Origin: Candidatus Woesearchaeota archaeon
Lineage (GTDB): Archaea > Nanobdellota > Nanobdellia > Woesearchaeales > JAGVYF01
DNA length: 64,000 bases
Assembly: GCA_023264635.1 (NCBI GenBank)
Contig: JAHFLT010000005.1
Location: 4,582-68,581, forward strand
Reading direction: 5' to 3'
Below, piece by piece: positions 587-43,706 of the stretch. The notes beneath the pieces were generated by a model. The model saw only the letters and a program-made list of their open reading frames with translations. It had not been told where the DNA came from and searched no databases. The position numbers and the translations under genes were made by a program. How positions within the stretch are numbered: the first letter of the stretch is position 1; each line of letters starts with the position of its first letter.

Positions 587-865
587 GTGTAGCATCAGCC
601 AAAAAGTGTATATAAATATATCGTAGAAGCCGTTGAAACGTCAGAATTTCACTCGTGTTTCACGAGTCAAGAGCATAGTGTATAGTACTACCTTCAGCTC
701 ATGGAATTCTGAATATGCTCAAAAAATGCAAAAGCATTTTTTTTTGGTTTTTGTGCAAGAAATCACTTATGCTTTCTTTGCAACCGAAGCATTAGCTGAG
801 GAACTTTTCAATAGCGAAATATCGTAACAACATTTAAAAACACGTTTATGTCCCACTGCGTCCAT

Positions 866-1093
866 GCGACAGTAGTCTAGTGGTAGGACGCTACCCTGCC
901 ACGGTAGCAACCCGGGTTCGAATAGGGTTTTGTGGTTAGAGGTTTGTGGCTTGAGGTAAAATGATCAGAGATTGTGGTTTGAGAATGAGGTTTGTGGTTG
1001 GAATACGACAAGCCTCGAACACCAGACTTTGATTAATAAAACCTCAAACTTCAAACTAAGAACATCAAATCAACGAAATTCCCGGCTGTCGCA
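866..1093 (+). tRNA. tRNA-Gly(GCC) interrupted by a ~157-nt intron (about 924..1080) in the T-loop/T-stem
   Basis: Acceptor 5' gcgacag (866-872) pairs perfectly with ctgtcgc (1086-1092), followed by discriminator a. D-arm is gtct/agtggta/ggac. Anticodon stem ctacc/ggtag has loop ctGCCac. T-stem 5' is ccggg with T-loop ttcgaat (917-923). The matching 3' T-stem cccgg appears only at 1081-1085. Exon ttcg can pair with intron-3' cgaa, giving a BHB-like helix. The 3' end is followed by a T-run. Confidence 0.75.
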
Positions 1094-4814: not shown

Positions 4815-4837
4815 GAGCGTCTCCAATTTATCCTAAA

Positions 4838-5170
4838 ATGATTCTAACAGAAGAGAAATCAGCTTATTATGTTGCGGCTCGTAAAAAAGGTTCAGAAGAC
4901 TCCTTCCAGTTTGTCAAATATGAAAAACACGGCAGGTGTGCCGGTGGACTTTCTACCGAGTGGAGTGTTGGTTTTAGAGTCGGGAATTATGCCTGTTCTG
5001 AAGAGATAGCAAAGAAAGCGCAGGAAGAACTTGAAAAACGAGGGTTTGAAGTACAGATTATAAAACAGTACTGGCCTTCGGGACATATCGATCTTGATGG
5101 GATTATTTTTGCAGAAGGACTGGAAAAAATTGCGAAGAATATTATAAAGAAAAGCAAGCGGGAATTATAA
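4838..5170 (+). CDS. Hypothetical protein
   Basis: Clean 110-aa ORF with no recognisable family. Confidence 0.3.
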   Translation: MILTEEKSAYYVAARKKGSEDSFQFVKYEKHGRCAGGLSTEWSVGFRVGNYACSEEIAKKAQEELEKRGFEVQIIKQYWPSGHIDLDGIIFAEGLEKIAKNIIKKSKREL

Positions 5171-8422: not shown

Positions 8423-8670
8423 AAGTTTTTCCCAGGTTTTTTTCGCTGAGCCGAAGGTGAAGTCGAAAAAAAGCAGGTGTAAGTTGCAGCGAAACTGCCT
8501 ACTCTTTTCCCAGGTTCCAAAGAAATTCTTTTGGAATTTCTTGGACCAAGACGAGCTTTGCTCGTCTTTGGTTTTGGGAGTGAGCCGAAGGCGAACGAAC
8601 AAAAAGCTGAAATGGGCCCACCCGGATTTTCTACTGGGTATTCAGTCTTTGAACCGGGGACCTTCACCTT
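8423..8670. repeat. Expanded copy (A) of a repeated intergenic element: core motifs tttttcccagg, gctgagccgaagg, aaaaagctg and tttgaaccggg, with an internal partial duplication and two strong hairpins
   Basis: The same motifs in the same order as element B at 41526..41612. Hairpins are agaaattc-tttt-gaatttct (8521-8541) and ccaagacgagc-ttt-gctcgtctttgg (8546-8571), each followed by a T-run. A long-range 9-bp pairing aaggtgaag (8453-8461) with cttcacctt (8663-8671) also encloses part of the region. It lies in a 470-bp gap between convergent genes. Confidence 0.5.
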
Positions 8671-8821
8671 TCTTCAGCATATTTGTTTTATCTCTTTGTG
8701 CTATGTAAGGGTGACGTCATAGCCGCTAGACCATGGGCCCGAAACAGAACGGTATTTTTAAGAGATATAAAAGACTTTACCTACCTAATCCAAATCTTGC
8801 ACGCCTTGCGCCTTCGACGTT

Positions 8822-9556
8822 TTATTTTCTTTGTAATATCCCAAGAGACGCTCTAAAGAAGAAACATGCGTCGATACCATATCCACAGCCGTAACGATTA
8901 CCGCGACTAACAGGCATCAAAACATTTTCCGGTGGAAGATAAAGCCATGTATTCTGCCTAATTTCCTCGGGTAATATCGCATACGGACGAGACCAGAGCT
9001 TCTGGACTAGGAAGGGGTTTATTTCGTTCACACCTTTGGGGGTACTCCAATCAAGTAATGAGCCAATGGAATACACTTCCTCTCCCGCGTGTTTCAGTTT
9101 TCCTCCTTGCACTACATATTGATATCCATTCCACACTAGATTCTCCGGGTCGAGATAGCAGTGCAACATATTCTCTTCCTGCATTATCGCCATGCTTAGC
9201 CATTCTCCGTAACCATTGAGCATATTATCAGCAATTGCTTGCTGGTCTGGTTGTAGTGTCCCTTCCAGTCCTCTGCAGATAAGGTCAAATGCTTCTACTG
9301 GTCTGGGATGGCGCTCGTAGCCGCGTGCTCGCAATGCACGCAGACTGGCGTCATAGGTGTACAGTCTTTTCTCTTTTCCATCATAAACCGCTTTCTCTTC
9401 GAAAACAACATCAGATAGTGCTGACTTTATGGTAATCTCCTTTTTCTCATCGGGTTTGCCGATATCGAGATATGATTCAATGCCCATAAAGAGGGAGAGA
9501 TTGAGTGACATTAAAAAACTTACCTGCTGAGTAAGTTGAGTAAAAGCTGAGAACAT
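8822..9556 (-). CDS. Unknown-function paralog family, copy 1 (of 3)
   Basis: Shares GKPDEKKEITIKSALSDVVFE, YERHPRP.EAFDLICRGLEG, YGEWLSMA, LHCYLDPENL, VVQGGK.KHA and KLWSRPYAILPE with 19030..19695 and 19692..20369. Likely true start is MGIESYLDIGKPDEKK. About 170 nt are near-identical to copy 2. Confidence 0.5.
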   Translation of the reverse strand: MFSAFTQLTQQVSFLMSLNLSLFMGIESYLDIGKPDEKKEITIKSALSDVVFEEKAVYDGKEKRLYTYDASLRALRARGYERHPRPVEAFDLICRGLEGTLQPDQQAIADNMLNGYGEWLSMAIMQEENMLHCYLDPENLVWNGYQYVVQGGKLKHAGEEVYSIGSLLDWSTPKGVNEINPFLVQKLWSRPYAILPEEIRQNTWLYLPPENVLMPVSRGNRYGCGYGIDACFFFRASLGILQRK

Positions 9557-9581: not shown

Positions 9582-10973
9582 TTGGGACTTGTGGGGGAAG
9601 TGACAATACAAGACAAACTCCTGGGAGATAATGGTGTCTACGACCTAGTGAACCAAAACTTCTACTTGAATCGTGCACAAATCCAGCTAGGAGACAGATT
9701 CTTCGAGCCAGTAGCGTTTATCGGCATTCTCACTGCTCTTGTCGACGGCAAAGAATTACTGTATGGTCCGTATGGCAAAGGGAAGACAACTTCTTCAGAA
9801 GCGTTGGGAGCACTCCTCTATGGACTCCCCTTGGAATTCATGCAGGTAAGCCAACTTGATGGTCATCCAGAGCAGACAGAAGAGAAAATAAAGGCTATCA
9901 TTGATTTAGGCAAGCTCACTAAAGAAGGGATTGAGGAGGTCATCTGGCGGTTGTTCGTGTATACTCCTGCAAAAGTATGTGATGAAATTAATCGTCTTCC
10001 CGAAGGCAAGCAGAACATCTTGCTCAAAGGAATTGATAGAAATGTATGGACGTACCGAGATAGTACATTGACAGTGCCGCAAGGATGCTTTTACGGAACA
10101 TGCAATTATGCTGACAGGGGAAATACAGATCTCATCCCACCGTTGAAAGACAGATTTGACATCGCTGTAGAAGTGAGACGAGCAGACCCTATTCGCCGCG
10201 AACTCATTAGAAATGGCGTTGTGCGAGATGCATTCGAACAGCTGAAGGAGCCAGCACTGTATACGGAAATTTTCGCTATGCTGATGGACTCCAAACACAC
10301 AGCTGAAAAAAAACTGGAGTTGCTAGAACAGATGAGTCAAAAATTCAAGCAAGAACTCAGCAAGCGCTTCAGTTTGTCCCTTCCCACGAATGATGAACTA
10401 CGCACTGCTAAAAAAGAGTTATCTTCTCTTATCTTGGAGGATGAGGCGACCCTATTCATAGATTACCTTACCAGCGAGATGGAATTCTGTATCTACCATG
10501 ACAAGCCAGAGCATGCCACCTGCCAGAAATGCCATTGGAAAGATTTTCTTTGTTCAAGAATGGGGAAAATAGGAGGCAGACTTGAGCTTTCGGTGGTTAA
10601 GTATGCCCGTGCAACAGCGTGGTTATTAGGGGAAAAAAAAGTAACATTGGAACACGTCAAGATGATATACCCTTATGCGCTATGGCACCGTGCAGAGTTT
10701 CAGGATAATATTTTACAGGAGTATGTCAGCGAGCCGAGAGAAAGCACCTTAAAGCTCCACATCGCACGAAAGATCGTGGAAGAGAAGACACCCCATTTTA
10801 TCGAGACAAAGGACCTGCAGGCACGGAGCTATAATGCTGTTGTCAATAGCAACGCAAACGACCTTGAGAAGTCTCACTTTAAGCATGCTGTGTACGTGGA
10901 TTACGTCAGTGCATGGGACTCCAAAAAAGACAAGGACGCTGTTGAGCAACTGCTGAAAAAAATAAGGAAATGA
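9582..10973 (+). CDS. MoxR-like AAA+ ATPase (AAA_3/AAA_5 type) with a Cys-containing C-terminal extension
   Basis: Walker A LLYGPYGKGKTT. Walker B and sensor region VCDEINRLPEGKQNILLKGIDRN. NP-loop/arginine region TVPQGCFYGTCNYADRGNTDLIPPLKDRFDIAVEV. Non-ATG start (TTG or GTG around 9582-9600). TATA-like ctttatatag about 25-30 nt upstream. Confidence 0.65.
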   Translation: MGLVGEVTIQDKLLGDNGVYDLVNQNFYLNRAQIQLGDRFFEPVAFIGILTALVDGKELLYGPYGKGKTTSSEALGALLYGLPLEFMQVSQLDGHPEQTEEKIKAIIDLGKLTKEGIEEVIWRLFVYTPAKVCDEINRLPEGKQNILLKGIDRNVWTYRDSTLTVPQGCFYGTCNYADRGNTDLIPPLKDRFDIAVEVRRADPIRRELIRNGVVRDAFEQLKEPALYTEIFAMLMDSKHTAEKKLELLEQMSQKFKQELSKRFSLSLPTNDELRTAKKELSSLILEDEATLFIDYLTSEMEFCIYHDKPEHATCQKCHWKDFLCSRMGKIGGRLELSVVKYARATAWLLGEKKVTLEHVKMIYPYALWHRAEFQDNILQEYVSEPRESTLKLHIARKIVEEKTPHFIETKDLQARSYNAVVNSNANDLEKSHFKHAVYVDYVSAWDSKKDKDAVEQLLKKIRK

Positions 10974-19029: not shown

Positions 19030-19695
19030 TTATGCTTGGGGCATTACCCCGCGAGAGACCTTGCAGTACCCTGTGCCGACATCATACCATTTATAGTAAC
19101 CACCGCGACTCATAAGCCACAAAACACTCTCTGGTGGAATCCACATCAATGCATTCTGCCTAATCTTTTCGGGTAGTATCGCATACGGGCGAGACCAGAG
19201 TTTCTCGACCAAAGTGGGGTTTATTTCGTTCATGGTTTTGGGGGTAAAGCAATCAGGAAATGAGCTAATTGAATACACTTCCTCTCTCGCGTGTTTTATT
19301 TTTCCTCCTTGTACAACATACCTCCACTCTTTCTTATCCCATAGGAGATTCTCCGGATCGAGATAACAATGCAACAAATTTCCTTTCCGCAACATTGCCA
19401 TGCTTAGCCATTCGCCATAACTATTCATCATATCATCAGCGATTGCTTGCTGTTCTGGAGATAATCTTCCTTCCAGTCCTCTGCAGATAAGGTCAAATGC
19501 TTCTGCTGGACGGGGGTGGCGCTCATAGCCGCGTTCTCTTAGTGCTTGTAAGCTGTCATTGAAAGTGTAGAGTTTTTTGTGTTGTCCTTCGTACACAGTT
19601 CTCGGTTCGAAAACAACATCTGATAGTGCTGACTTTAGGGTAATCTCTTTTTTCTCATCGGGTTTATTGAGGCCGAGATAGAAATCAATGCTCAT
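19030..19695 (-). CDS. Unknown-function paralog family, copy 3
   Basis: Shares the same conserved blocks as 8822..9556. About 80% nucleotide identity in the core, with a divergent C-terminal tail. Confidence 0.5.
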   Translation of the reverse strand: MSIDFYLGLNKPDEKKEITLKSALSDVVFEPRTVYEGQHKKLYTFNDSLQALRERGYERHPRPAEAFDLICRGLEGRLSPEQQAIADDMMNSYGEWLSMAMLRKGNLLHCYLDPENLLWDKKEWRYVVQGGKIKHAREEVYSISSFPDCFTPKTMNEINPTLVEKLWSRPYAILPEKIRQNALMWIPPESVLWLMSRGGYYKWYDVGTGYCKVSRGVMPQA

Positions 19696-20369
19696 CGTTG
19701 TCGTACCCCACGAGATGCACTGGTGATGTAGCTGGTGTCAACATCATACTTGGTGATGTAGTTATTGCTACTGACAGGACGCAAAGCATTTTCTGGTGGA
19801 AGCAAAATCCACGCATTCTGTCTTATCTCTTCAGGTAATAGTGCATAGTGACGAGACCAGAGCTTCTCCACTAAGGCTGGATTCGCATCGTTCATATATT
19901 TAATGTGAATCAACCCATGCAATGAGCCAATAGAGTACACTTCCTCTTCCGCGTGTTTCAGTTTTCCTCCTTGAACAATGTATTGATTTCCATTCCACAC
20001 CAGATTCTCCGGGTCAAGATAGCAATGCAACAGATTTCCTTTCCGCAGAATTGCCATGCTCAGCCATTCGCCATAACTATTCACCATATCGCCAGCAACT
20101 GCTTGCTGCTCTGGTTGCAGTCTCTCCTCCAGTCCTCTGCAGATAAAATCAAACGCTTCTACTGGTCTGGGATGGCGCTCGTAGCCGCGTGCTCGCAATG
20201 CACGCAGACTGGCGTCATAGGTGTACAGTCTTTTCTCTTTTCCATCATAAACCGCTTTCTCTTCGAAAACAACATCTGATAGTGCTGACTTTATGGTAAT
20301 CTCCTTTTTCTCATCTGGTTTGCCTAGTCCCTCGTACAGTTTTATCATGTTAATAGAGAATCCCAACAA
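19692..20369 (-). CDS. Unknown-function paralog family, copy 2 (tandem with copy 3)
   Basis: Same blocks. The 170 nt at 20151-20320 match 9291-9460 with 2 mismatches. Confidence 0.5.
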   Translation of the reverse strand: MLGFSINMIKLYEGLGKPDEKKEITIKSALSDVVFEEKAVYDGKEKRLYTYDASLRALRARGYERHPRPVEAFDFICRGLEERLQPEQQAVAGDMVNSYGEWLSMAILRKGNLLHCYLDPENLVWNGNQYIVQGGKLKHAEEEVYSIGSLHGLIHIKYMNDANPALVEKLWSRHYALLPEEIRQNAWILLPPENALRPVSSNNYITKYDVDTSYITSASRGVRQR

Positions 20370-31897: not shown

Positions 31898-31949
31898 TTT
31901 TAAAGGTATGGCGAAATCTTTATAAACACGGCACTATGTTCAGGTACTT

Positions 31950-32060
31950 GGACGGTCATAGGGGCTTGGTTCACCCGATCCCATTCCGAACTCGGACGTT
32001 AAGCAAGCCTCCGTACCGGTAAGTACTTTACTCAGTAGGGGAAAGCTGGTAAGCTGTCCA
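31950..32060 (+). rRNA. rrf: 5S ribosomal RNA
   Basis: CACCCGATCCCATTCCGAACTCGGACGTTAAGC matches the universal 5S loop B/helix III/loop C core. Terminal helix I is ggacgg...ctgtcc. TATA-like tttataaa about 25 nt upstream. No 16S/23S adjacent. Confidence 0.75.
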
Positions 32061-32174
32061 CTCACATTCTCCCTTTACTACATTCTCCCGTAAGCATATT
32101 CTTCACTCAGCTATTCTTCCACAACTTACACAAAGATTAAATAATGCTGTGCACTGCCCGAGTAACACTTACCT

Positions 32175-40773: not shown

Positions 40774-41162
40774 AGACACGGATCTTTTATCACGGATCTC
40801 CTATTTCAAAATTGAAAAGACTTGAGCCTCGTCTCGATACTCGTCTAGGACTAAAAGGTGTTTTTGTTGCTGATGAACCATTTGGGCCGATGATGTTTGC
40901 CCTTCTCCCAAATAGAGCCAAATCTACTGTCAAATATGTAACTAAGAAAAGGAAATTTGTAGAGGGTTATGTCATTACTCCCAAACCATTGAACAAGGTG
41001 GGCTGGCTTTATAGTGTGAAACCGGAACAGGCATGCATTGTTGAAAGAAAACCCGGGCGATATTTTCTCAATGCATCAACCAAAGTAGTAAAATGCAGAA
41101 AGGTAACAAAAGAGGAAGTACTCAAATTGGGATGGAAAGTGACTCCCAAAACCCCTAAATAA
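40770..41162 (+). CDS. Hypothetical basic protein
   Basis: ORF only (IFYHGSP N-terminus). Start overlaps the transporter stop. Confidence 0.3.
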   Translation: MKTRIFYHGSPISKLKRLEPRLDTRLGLKGVFVADEPFGPMMFALLPNRAKSTVKYVTKKRKFVEGYVITPKPLNKVGWLYSVKPEQACIVERKPGRYFLNASTKVVKCRKVTKEEVLKLGWKVTPKTPK

Positions 41163-41424
41163 TCTTCTCTCCAGTCTCTTTCTTTTTCAAATGGATGACG
41201 TTAACAGGACAGCTTTCTGCAGCTTCCTTGTTTTTAGAAAAGTCACTTTCTTCAATATCCAATATCTCCAAGACAATCTCCCCTTTCTCATTTTTCTGGT
41301 GAACACTATTCTTAATATCTGATTTTCCGTCATCATCCATCACCCAGAAATCGGGAGTGATGGCTGCACAAGCTCCACAGCCAATACAATTCGGTCTGTC
41401 GTGTTCAATGATAAATTTAGACAT
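41155..41424 (-). CDS. 4Fe-4S ferredoxin (single cluster)
   Basis: CIGCGACAAITP...CP fits the Cx2Cx2C...CP pattern. Confidence 0.7.
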   Translation of the reverse strand: MSKFIIEHDRPNCIGCGACAAITPDFWVMDDDGKSDIKNSVHQKNEKGEIVLEILDIEESDFSKNKEAAESCPVNVIHLKKKETGEKII

Positions 41425-41525
41425 TGTTAACTATAGTTAATTATTGTTTTTATATAATTCTTTCGATAGAGATTGTAACGCCGCGGCCCGGACTTTCACC
41501 AGCCGACTCTTGTGACGAAGTCACC

Positions 41526-41612
41526 TAGTTTTTCCCAGGTTTTTGGTAGCTGAGCCGAAGGACAAAGTCCTGAAGGCGAAGCGGACAAAAAGCTGTTTTG
41601 AACCGGGAGATC
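41526..41612. repeat. Compact copy (B) of the repeated intergenic element; it lies inside a ~240-nt region whose ends can pair GCCGCGG (41479) with CCGCGGC (41712)
   Basis: tttttcccaggtttttggtagctgagccgaaggacaaagtcctgaaggcgaagcggacaaaaagctgttttgaaccggga. Includes the local hairpin aggac-aaa-gtcct. Sits in a 400-bp gap. Confidence 0.5.
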
Positions 41613-41840
41613 CCTTGCGGGAAACGAGATAATCGCGAGAAGACACTCTCACTGATTGCGATGCATTCTCAAATGTCTGCAGATAGCAATCTCGCGCAGT
41701 ACCAGGTTGTGCCACCGCGGCATCTGTGAAACGATAAAGAGTTTTTATATAAATCTTTGGTGAATCTGTGAACTACATAATACAACAGCAAAGAATCAAC
41801 CCGAAAAGTATTAAATAGGCACTTGTTTTACCTTTTTCGC

Positions 41841-43706
41841 ATGGTATTAGATTTTAAGTCAACAAAGGACATCAAAATTTCAAAGCGTATCATAGACAGG
41901 GTAGTGGGTCAAGAAGAAGCTGTGGAAGTAGCAAAGAAAGCTGCTTCTCAAAGACGCCATATGCTCCTCATTGGAGAGCCTGGTACTGGAAAGTCTATGA
42001 TAGGTCTGGGGCTTGCAGAGCTATTGCCACGCGAAAAACTGCTTGACATACTCGCATTCCAAAATCAGAATGATGAGAACCAGCCACTTATCCGCACGGT
42101 AACAGCTGGCAAGGGTCGGGAAATAGTGATGAAAGCGCGTATGCTGGGCATAGATGCAGTAAAGAATCAGTCTGTTGCTCTTTTCATTATTGCATTGGTT
42201 GTTTCCTTTTTGCCATATTACTTCTGGAAGATGGGGGAAATTTCAGATGTTATTTTTGCAGCGTCTATGATTACAGGGATGGTTTTTCTGATTGGGTTTT
42301 TGTTATTTCTAAACTTCTCAAGAAGACCTGAAACAAGACCTGGTGCTCCTAAAGTCATTGTTGATAATTTTGGGAATAAGCAGGCGCCATTCTTTGATGC
42401 TACTGGTGCACATGCTGGCGCATTACTCGGAGACGTGCTTCACGATCCGTTCCAGTCGGGAGGATTAGGCACCCCGGCTCATGAACGTGTGGTGGCAGGC
42501 ATGATACACAAGGCGCACATGGGTGTTCTTTTCATTGATGAAATAGCGACACTCAAACCAAGCACCCAACAAGAGTTGCTGACAGCACTCCAAGAAGGAA
42601 AATTTTCTATCACTGGGCAATCAGAAAGAAGTGCCGGTGCAATGGTACGTACAGAAGCAGTGCCTTGTAATTTTATTATGATTGCAGCAGGCAATATGGA
42701 AACCATGAAATACATGCATCCTGCCCTGAGGTCACGCATCAGAGGGTATGGGTATGAAGTCTATATGAAGGATACCATGCCAGACAATCCGGAAAACAGA
42801 ATGAAAATAGCACGGTTTGTCGCACAGGAAATCATCCATGATGGGAATATTCCTCATTTCTCCATGGAGGCTGTACTGGCCATCATAGAAGAAGCAAAAC
42901 GTCGCGCGAATCGCAAAGGTCACCTGACGCTACGGTTACGCGAGCTGGGCGGCATTGTCAGAGCTGCAGGAGATCTCGGAAAAGAGGAAGGTGCTGAGTT
43001 TGTTCGGGCAATTCACGTTAAAAATGCCAAAAAATACGCAAGAACCCTGGAACAGCAGTTGGCTGATAAACTTATTGAGAGACGCAAGGAGTATGAAGTG
43101 ATTATGATTTCTGGTGAAAAAGTGGGTAGGGTTAATGGCTTGGCTGTGTTGGGCGGGGAAACAGGAATATTTTCTGGCATCATCCTTCCCATAGAAGCGC
43201 AGGTCTCACCAGGCGGGAAATCTTCAGAAATTATGGCCACTGGAAAATTAGGTGATATTGCAAAAGAAGCTGTCAAGAATGTCTCAGCCATCATTAAGAA
43301 TTATTTTGGTGAAGACATCAAAGGGAAATATGACTTATATGTCCAATTCCTGCAAACCTATGAGGGCGTGGAAGGAGACTCTGCAAGCATTGCAGTGGCA
43401 ACAGCAGTCATCTCCGCAATAGAGAATGTGCCAGTGCGCCAGGATACTGCTATGACTGGCTCATTGACAGTCCGTGGAGAAGTACTTCCCATAGGTGGGG
43501 TTTCTGCAAAAGTCGAAGCAGCTATTGAGTCCGGCCTTAAACAGGTTATTGTGCCACGCTCAAATCTCAATGACATCGTCGTTGAGAAAGCAAAACTAGA
43601 CAAGATAAAAGTGATTCCCGTTGAACATATTGTTGATGTCTTAAAAGAGGCATTGGTGTGGAAAGGAAAAGAACAAGTGCTGAAAAAAATAATAAAAGGA
43701 AAATAG
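41841..43706 (+). CDS. lonB: Archaeal-type ATP-dependent Lon protease (LonB, membrane-anchored)
   Basis: [33 protein letters not shown] Walker A. Two TM helices inserted in the AAA domain. Walker B VLFIDEI. Protease Ser in [12 protein letters not shown] and catalytic Lys region. The ORF track start at 41823 is probably an extension. Confidence 0.9.

Follow-up and report, generated by a model that had tools for sequence, protein, structure and literature searches.

The closest described systems are the disrupted tRNA genes of other archaea. [quoted passage not shown] In a survey of DPANN, including one genome of Woesearchaeota, an α4 EndA with an L3 loop was associated with increased tRNA gene disruption, and gaps in the predicted tRNA sets of some genomes were put down to disrupted tRNA genes that had escaped identification (PMC5829648). 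For Thermoproteales, it has been proposed that similar intron sequences spread from one tRNA gene to another, as related in later papers (Fujishima et al. 2010, via PMC4090602, PMC4033280). The present analysis concerns 64,000 nucleotides (nt) of a Candidatus Woesearchaeota archaeon (contig JAHFLT010000005.1), hereafter the window. The long gap between its ferredoxin and lonB genes very probably contains a functional tRNA-Ser(GCU) gene, which runs on the minus strand from 41721 to 41479 and is interrupted by two protein-spliced BHB introns.

The minus-strand reading of this locus begins with GCCGCGG-UG-GCAC-AACCUGGUA-CUGC and ends with UCCGGG-CCGCGGC-G, i.e., with the acceptor stem, the D-arm, the T-stem, and the discriminator base. 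The gene and its upstream box are composed as follows:

41744-41755, minus strand: TATA-like box preceded by the purine-rich AAAGA, which resembles a transcription factor B recognition element (BRE), about 25-30 nt upstream of position 1 of the tRNA-Ser
41684-41721, minus strand: exon 1, 38 nt; 5' strand of the acceptor stem (GCCGCGG), D-arm, 5' strand of the anticodon stem, and anticodon loop up to A37 (manual parse and ARAGORN)
41631-41683, minus strand: intron 1, 53 nt, at the canonical site 37/38 (BHB and ARAGORN in intron mode)
41597-41630, minus strand: exon 2, 34 nt; A38, 3' strand of the anticodon stem, variable arm UCCC-GCAA-GGGA, 5' strand of the T-stem, and T-loop from U54 to A59
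41493-41596, minus strand: intron 2, 104 nt, at site 59/60 in the T-loop (BHB in the unconstrained minimum free energy (MFE) fold, and a homologue in a related genome)
41479-41492, minus strand: exon 3, 14 nt; U60, 3' strand of the T-stem (CCGGG), 3' strand of the acceptor stem (CCGCGGC), and discriminator G73

When both introns were removed in silico, the resulting 86-nt sequence was called as tRNA-Ser(gct) by ARAGORN under default settings, with a computed fold that includes an acceptor stem of 7 bp; the terminal CCA is not encoded. A long variable arm and G73 are identity elements of tRNA-Ser. In accordance with the anticodon GCU, the spliced sequence shows a variable arm of 17 nt with a 4-bp stem and a discriminator G at 41479. 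None of the 800 shuffles of four spliced tRNAs received a tRNA call. In order to limit the analyst's freedom over the choice of splice sites, the T-loop intron alone was removed, and ARAGORN in intron mode still reported tRNA-Ser(gct), finding the anticodon-loop intron unaided.

On the raw sequence, ARAGORN under default settings found no tRNA anywhere in the 64 kb, and Rfam 15 at the gathering threshold found only a 5S rRNA (31948-32062) and no tRNA in the whole window, as expected if the tRNA genes are disrupted. With the Rfam threshold relaxed to E <= 5 over the same window, nothing was found at the tRNA-Ser locus and only a weak tRNA match at 866-934 was added. Two other parses of the locus were abandoned. 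A tRNA-Pro with a 149-nt "intron", returned by ARAGORN with its single-intron model at a lowered threshold, was a wrong parse and was replaced by the two-intron model, and a split, trans-spliced tRNA was rejected since no promoter-like box was seen inside intron 2.

The junctions of both introns form computed BHB motifs. In intron 2, the outer helix h is the T-stem itself (CCCGG/CCGGG), the central helix H is UUCA/UGAA, the bulges are AAA on the 5' strand and AGU on the 3' strand, and the inner helix h' is CAGC/GCUG. This arrangement appears in the unconstrained MFE fold of the T-arm with intron 2, where the 5-bp T-stem is stacked on the 4-bp UUCA/UGAA helix, with the AAA bulge, CAGC/GCUG, and the AGU bulge. 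A cut between the second and the third bulge nucleotides restores the T-loop UUCAAAU. As modeled, the fold has the substrate geometry of the archaeal splicing endonuclease, one extra bulged G aside. In intron 1, h is CGAGA/UCUCG, H is UUGC/GCGA, the bulges are UAU and UUA, and h' is relaxed. The BHB-constrained fold of this intron has -15.8 kcal/mol compared with -17.9 for its MFE fold, i.e., it lies 2.1 kcal/mol above it.

Similarly to the non-canonical BHB introns of ARMAN-2 and of the multi-intron tRNAs of Thermoproteales, the insertion is at site 59/60 and is combined with a canonical intron at 37/38. The motif is also alike, with a 4-bp central helix in which T-loop bases pair with the 3' end of the intron, bulges of 3 nt, and a form which ranges from strict to relaxed. 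In common with ARMAN-2, the host belongs to DPANN and its genes are invisible to standard tRNA finders. On the other hand, the ARMAN-2 tRNA-Cys intron has 13 nt, whereas the T-loop introns found here have 104 nt (Ser) and 157 nt (Gly). Unlike the ARMAN-2 introns, that of the tRNA-Ser contains a conserved structured repeat which is also present outside introns, and the lineage is that of Woesearchaeota. The doubly interrupted tRNA-Ser is a further example of a phenomenon already known in DPANN and other archaea, and the repeat in its T-loop intron is a modest twist on it.

The locus was compared with a related genome (L126, GCA_053531795.1), whose ferredoxin is 81% identical to that of the window. 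In L126, a tRNA-Ser gene (4837-5042) is located directly upstream of the ferredoxin gene on the same strand. The two genes have in common the acceptor stem, the D-arm, the variable arm, and the T-arm, and the gene of L126 has no intron at 37/38. Its intron at 59/60 opens with the same hairpin element as intron 2 of the window. At 19.6 bits, the tRNA model of Rfam matches the L126 gene over its 5' part, which is uninterrupted.

The computed conservation is highest at the 3' end of the tRNA, where the T-arm and the 3' strand of the acceptor stem are identical (25/25), followed by the 5' strand of the acceptor stem with the D-arm (25/27) and the variable arm (14/17). Within the intron, the identity is 77% for hairpin 1 with its linker and about 51% for the remaining 3' part. 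Exons outside the anticodon arm are therefore 82-100% identical, above the identity of the intron, in this comparison with one genome. Such a gradient speaks for a gene that is spliced and functional, and against a pseudogene. The Ser intron is also a rare case in which the same T-loop intron can be traced between two genomes. The anticodon arms of the two genes differ, which suggests a replacement of the anticodon arm or a gene conversion between Ser isoacceptors at the locus.

By its LonB homologues, the window falls within Candidatus Woesearchaeota, a DPANN lineage. Other relatives showed different neighborhoods. In three of them, with LonB 82-84% identical, Rpp14 is upstream of lonB, and not ferredoxin or a tRNA. 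The search of the genome collection with LonB gave one relative on a contig with only 145 nt upstream of lonB. In more distant relatives of the ferredoxin, its gene is located in a Suf operon without a tRNA.

A custom scan for pairs of acceptor stem and T-arm, in which an interrupted T-loop was allowed, gave three candidates in the window, i.e., the tRNA-Ser and two further genes:

866-1093, plus strand: tRNA-Gly(GCC), interrupted once, by an intron of 157 nt at 59/60 (923-1079), with H = UUCG/CGAA (scan, MFE fold, and ARAGORN on the spliced sequence)
8613-8740, minus strand: probable tRNA-Val(UAC) with introns of 34 nt at 37/38 and 21 nt at 59/60 (custom scan, and ARAGORN tRNA-Val(tac) after splicing)

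The unspliced tRNA-Gly gene is missed by ARAGORN, and its Rfam match (866-934) is weak, with 24.4 bits, below the gathering score. In the central helix, the strand supplied by the intron covaries with the T-loop, as seen in UUCA/UGAA of Ser and UUCG/CGAA of Gly. Exhaustive single deletions yielded an ARAGORN tRNA in 123 cases for the tRNA-Gly of the window and in 82 cases for the tRNA-Ser of L126, and the respective numbers in the control on dinucleotide shuffles (10 each) were 0 and 1. Among the matches listed for these two genes, the deletions sit at the T-loop. The intron of the tRNA-Gly is a long hairpin of GGTTTGTGG-type repeats and their complements. In the case of the tRNA-Val, the intron placement of ARAGORN itself leads to an anticodon UGA, but the short variable arm does not fit a tRNA-Ser; the exact junction at 37/38, and hence the anticodon, is not fully certain.

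The window, seemingly free of tRNA genes according to ARAGORN and Rfam, would hold at least three, all interrupted in the T-loop. Annotation of metagenome-assembled genomes of Woesearchaeota and DPANN, as well as inferences on their completeness and codon usage, will miss such tRNAs when tools that do not consider BHB motifs are used. It is advisable to look for disrupted tRNAs in the long "empty" intergenic gaps of these compact genomes before a new class of RNA is put forward.

A TATA-like box is located about 25-35 nt upstream of each of the Ser, Gly, and Val tRNAs, on the strand of the gene. For the tRNA-Ser, the TATA-like sequence tttttatataaa had already been noticed at 41744-41755 and is indeed there. 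The minus strand from 41759 to 41740 reads CAAAGATTTATATAAAAACT, and the box itself CAAAGATTTATATAAAAAC; it probably belongs to the promoter of the minus-strand tRNA-Ser. This box is part of a direct repeat of 18 nt (41446-41463 and 41741-41758, on the minus strand AAAGAWTTATATAAAAAC), whose near-copies resemble a BRE followed by a TATA box and sit about 25-30 nt upstream of both the ATG of ferredoxin and position 1 of the tRNA-Ser. So short a distance from the ferredoxin ATG implies a leaderless ferredoxin mRNA. A T-run terminator is absent between the tRNA-Ser and the ferredoxin gene, which lies about 45-55 nt downstream on the same strand (window 41479 to 41425, L126 5043-5086), and read-through into ferredoxin is therefore possible. 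In contrast, the tRNA-Gly is followed by a T8 run (about 1098-1105) and the tRNA-Val by a T5 run (about 8601-8605).

From these elements we infer the following pathway of transcription, cleavage, and ligation. Transcription would begin downstream of the TATA-like box (41744-41755), at a distance of about 27 nt, and would produce a pre-tRNA of about 243 nt. In this precursor, U32-C35 of the anticodon loop would pair with the 3' end of intron 1, and U54-A57 of the T-loop with the 3' end of intron 2. Each pairing would create a 4-bp helix between two 3-nt bulges, which is the substrate of archaeal EndA, and the enzyme would cut out intron 1 after A37 and before A38, and intron 2 after A59 and before U60. 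A ligase of the RtcB type would then join the three exons into the 86-nt tRNA, CCA would be added later, and the introns would be set free, probably as circles. In intron 2, the repeat hairpin would lengthen the inner helix h' and so hold the two splice sites together.

The repeat within intron 2 had been recorded in the initial annotation as element B, and BLAST confirmed it as a genuine repeat through partial copies at 8424-8457 and 8587-8609. Its copies, together with the second hairpin of the intron, are:

41529-41595, minus strand: copy B, the core of intron 2, composed of hairpin 1 and the CCUGGGAAAA linker (66.8 bits with the covariance model R1, as a training copy)
41512-41524, minus strand: hairpin 2 of intron 2, GUGAC-UUC-GUCAC; in copy A2 and in L126, this place is taken by hairpins of other sequence
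8426-8476, minus strand: copy A1, in tandem with A2, between a convergent ZIP-transporter gene and the tRNA-Val (BLAST; 75.9 bits with R1)
8505-8609, minus strand: copy A2, starting 3 nt after the discriminator of the tRNA-Val and containing two inserted hairpins (BLAST; R1 core at 8566-8609 with 41 bits)
4908-4969 of L126: copy within the T-loop intron of the L126 tRNA-Ser (BLAST against copy B of the window)

In the sense of the tRNA, the repeat hairpin consists of a CAG/CUG stem, a C·C mismatch, a stem of a U-run with an A-run, an invariant UUC×UCA loop, and a stem of 3 bp. This last stem is GCC/GGC in the window and GUC/GAC in L126, i.e., a compensatory change. The copies in introns add a second loop, UUC×UC, and a terminal stem-loop. 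The CCUGGGAAAA linker that comes after the hairpin is invariant across the copies, and a second hairpin of variable sequence then follows in three of the four. All four copies are inside or beside tRNA genes. The hairpins inserted in copy A2 (CCAAAGA...TCTTTGG type; window 8519-8578, plus strand) recur intergenically in L126 (231-286) and form a second small hairpin family.

The covariance model R1 was built from the copies, so that a match of the training copies is a given; what is informative is that the rest of the window stays at 14 bits or less. In 73 kb of relatives, R1 gave no additional copy. The search of viral contigs for the repeat gave only chance matches in coding sequence, and a metagenome-wide pattern search (TGAGCCGAAGGN{5,35}AAAAAGC) returned at least 120 stretches, all of them chance matches when checked again by BLAST.

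As for the origin of the repeat, we infer that the hairpin predates the split from the lineage of L126 and was present in the common ancestor. The repeat is treated here as an intron-type sequence duplicated at tRNA loci, and copies A1 and A2 most likely arose by duplication or transposition of such a sequence at the DNA level, by analogy with the transposition of introns in Thermoproteales. As that proposal is related in the papers which cite it, the two cases are alike in that a near-identical intron-type sequence occurs at more than one tRNA locus of one genome; they differ in that the extra copies here are not introns but a tandem pair in the 3' flank of the tRNA-Val, and that three copies lie in 64 kb. 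When similar introns were looked for, the element was present three times in the window and only one copy was an intron, the 59/60 introns of Gly and Val being unrelated in sequence. The presence of the repeat core outside introns bears on the question of how non-canonical tRNA introns of archaea are gained.

A role as intron scaffold, which is the most economical one, does not explain several properties of the repeat, namely the stability of its antisense strand, the U5-U8 run, the linker without an assigned partner, and the two copies outside introns. It was considered whether the repeat is a functional module of its own, i.e., a protein-binding or antisense RNA, a single-stranded DNA hairpin with recognised G·A loops, or a bidirectional terminator cassette. 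The internal loops do not vary among the four copies, in contrast to the flanking stems, where compensatory substitutions occur; the linker is invariant too, the antisense hairpin is the more stable one in every copy, and an A·C of copy A1 in the sense strand becomes G·U in the antisense strand. Moreover, A1 and A2 lie between convergent genes, with T-runs facing both ways. However, only four copies are known, all of them next to or inside tRNA genes, and none was added by the searches of the window, the 73 kb of relatives, and the viral contigs. The loops (3×3 and 2×3) lack the geometry of a kink-turn (K-turn), which is a 3-nt bulge with tandem G·A pairs, and C/D boxes are lacking as well. 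A tRNA intron would be a counter-productive place for a terminator, and conservation among four recent paralogues can reflect inheritance and not selection. A functional module of this kind is unlikely.

The invariant loops (UUC×UCA, or UGA×GAA in the antisense), the invariant linker, and the location of all four copies at tRNA genes also point to a mobile module which seeds BHB introns at the tRNA loci of Woesearchaeota, or to a stable, possibly circular, RNA derived from the intron or its antisense strand with protein-binding G·A loops. This combined proposal is speculative and rather improbable. If true, the mobile repeat would be a live example of intron gain in archaeal tRNA genes.

Introns of archaeal tRNA genes can also host functional RNAs, for example the box C/D guide RNA in the tRNA-Trp intron of Haloferax and Pyrococcus. 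The Ser intron resembles it in being long (>100 nt), structured, and conserved between related genomes. Unlike the guide RNA, it shows no properly spaced C/D boxes on either strand, no K-turn, and no Rfam match. Searching for C (RUGAUGA) and D (CUGA) boxes with up to one mismatch, on both strands of all four long introns, gave no consistent pair or spacing, where a guide RNA would show C'/D' boxes as well and a spacing of about 12 nt, and a reading of the repeat as a K-turn or kink-loop was rejected on account of its 3×3 and 2×3 loops.

Several points weigh against a functional tRNA-Ser with two spliced introns. The comparison includes one related genome, L126, and the anticodon arm differs completely (GCU in the window, UGA in L126), which makes a strict orthology of the two tRNA-Ser genes uncertain. 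ARAGORN places the 3' junction of intron 1 at an earlier UCUCG, resulting in an intron of 44 nt and not 53; the 53-nt junction is preferred because only this one gives both a BHB and a variable arm whose length matches that of L126. The BHB of intron 1 is relaxed, with an inner helix only after a 4×4 internal loop, and is not the MFE structure, and an extra bulged G is present in that of intron 2. Right after the 5' splice site of intron 2, its sense strand opens with a run of U5 (U8 in L126). Since U-runs can terminate archaeal transcription, the full-length pre-tRNA might be made inefficiently. In every copy of the repeat, the antisense hairpin is more stable than the sense one by 7-9 kcal/mol, owing to tandem G·A pairs. 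Finally, the custom T-loop scan by itself is unspecific, with 33 matches in 20 shuffled windows, and the case therefore rests on the follow-up tests, which all three candidates (Ser, Gly, and Val) survived.

An alternative reading of the locus is a pseudogene, in which a repeat resembling a miniature inverted-repeat transposable element (MITE) was inserted in the T-loop and inactivated the tRNA-Ser gene. The same element is found outside introns, with two copies 3' of the tRNA-Val, and its sense strand opens with the U5-U8 run as a possible terminator. Nevertheless, all exons are intact and together give the fold of a canonical tRNA-Ser, and the junctions form a BHB in the unconstrained MFE fold. 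L126 has the insertion as well, yet it retains 25/25 positions in the T-arm and the 3' strand of the acceptor stem, while the 3' half of the intron has fallen to about 51%; exons that are kept next to a diverged intron are the signature of purifying selection on the exons. In addition, unrelated sequences occupy the same 59/60 site in the tRNA-Gly and the tRNA-Val, each with a matching central helix. An inactivated gene is thus very unlikely, and the functional, spliced tRNA-Ser(GCU) is preferred.

The gap had originally been described as a candidate stable RNA gene on the plus strand, with a terminal helix around about 240 nt and an architecture like that of the signal recognition particle (SRP) RNA or the ribonuclease P (RNase P) RNA. 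A stable RNA gene is present and the helix does join its 5' and 3' ends, but it lies on the minus strand and belongs to the tRNA family. Its neighbors on the two sides are as follows:

41155-41424, minus strand: ferredoxin gene, with the start codon at 41424
41841: most likely start (ATG) of LonB

This start of LonB is chosen to agree with the 621 aa of the identical protein in the database. This leaves a noncoding gap of 416 bp (41425-41840), in agreement with the unusual length that had been remarked upon. The GC content is 0.46-0.52 in 41450-41750, 0.32-0.37 in the flanks, and 0.417 in the whole window. The perfect complementarity of 7 bp in the terminal helix is real, its two strands being GCCGCGG at 41480-41486 and CCGCGGC at 41715-41721, 1 and 3 bases away from the positions first given; it corresponds to the acceptor stem of the tRNA-Ser. 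The outer pairing of CCCGG with CCAGG does not hold, since the two are not complementary and pair in four out of five positions, with a C·A mismatch in the middle. The two internal hairpins exist and also find a place in the tRNA gene: tccc-ttgc-ggga (41611-41622) is the long variable arm, and gtgac-gaa-gtcac (41512-41524) is a hairpin within the T-loop intron.

The Rfam search proposed for this gap was made with Rfam 15, which includes the archaeal SRP and RNase P models; over 41300-41950, with relaxed filters at E <= 10 on both strands, it gave only a chance FopS match inside lonB. The resemblance to SRP and RNase P RNA is restricted to the size range and the helix joining the 5' and 3' ends, whereas a covariance-model match and the conserved motifs are lacking and the gene is on the opposite strand. 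When the fold was compared with shuffled sequence, it was better, but modestly so (z = -2.69 for the plus and -2.67 for the minus strand). With both strands doing equally well, folding by itself does not distinguish the strand or the class of RNA. A structured plus-strand RNA of about 240 nt (SRP, RNase P, or another stable RNA) with its own promoter is extremely unlikely: the 7-bp helix is strand-symmetric, the plus strand folds with the above z value, and the repeat hairpin is 7-9 kcal/mol more stable there through its tandem G·A pairs, but the minus strand folds equally well, no Rfam family other than the chance FopS was matched, each sub-feature fits in register a minus-strand tRNA cloverleaf with BHB introns, the BRE-like purines are on the minus-strand side of the TATA-like box, and the relatives with LonB 82-84% identical do not have the region upstream of lonB.

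Some further observations were made in the window and its relatives. Upstream of the tRNA-Gly, a structured region of about 93 nt is conserved between the window (630-722, minus strand) and L126 (75-170, plus strand). Three of its 24 predicted pairs differ in a compensatory manner between the window and L126, and the strand is fixed by G·U pairs. The region corresponds to no family of Rfam and is possibly a small RNA that has not been annotated.

In the relative L123, an insertion of about 175 bp (9760-9935) is located between Rpp14 and lonB. It has terminal inverted repeats of 15 bp (GGCTTCATCCAAAAA) and a flanking direct repeat of 11 bp (TTTTTTGGCGG); it is MITE-like and folds no better than shuffled sequence. 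A link between the repeat of intron 2 and a "TGAGCCGAA...GCGAAGC" stretch in L123 was dropped, since R1 gives no match to this stretch, which is part of another insertion, one with inverted repeats and a target duplication.

In two relatives, LonB has about 1065-1091 aa (L002 146-3421, and protein P0006), and the LonB of the window is intein-free. P0006 carries the intein Pfam domain PF14890. The inserted segment in the LonB of L002 has no match to the LonB of the window and looks like an insertion similar to that of P0006.

A protein family of about 220-244 aa, without a precomputed Pfam domain, has three members on the minus strand of the window (8822-9556, 19066-19695, and 19695-20366), two of them in tandem. 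About 40 homologues are confined to a few NCBI/ENA contigs, with several on each, suggesting that the family has undergone a lineage-specific expansion. In another Woesearchaeota relative (L125), an Rfam RT-16 RNA match at 1548-1717 on the minus strand, with 66.6 bits and above the gathering score, lies beside an open reading frame for an RVT_1 reverse transcriptase.

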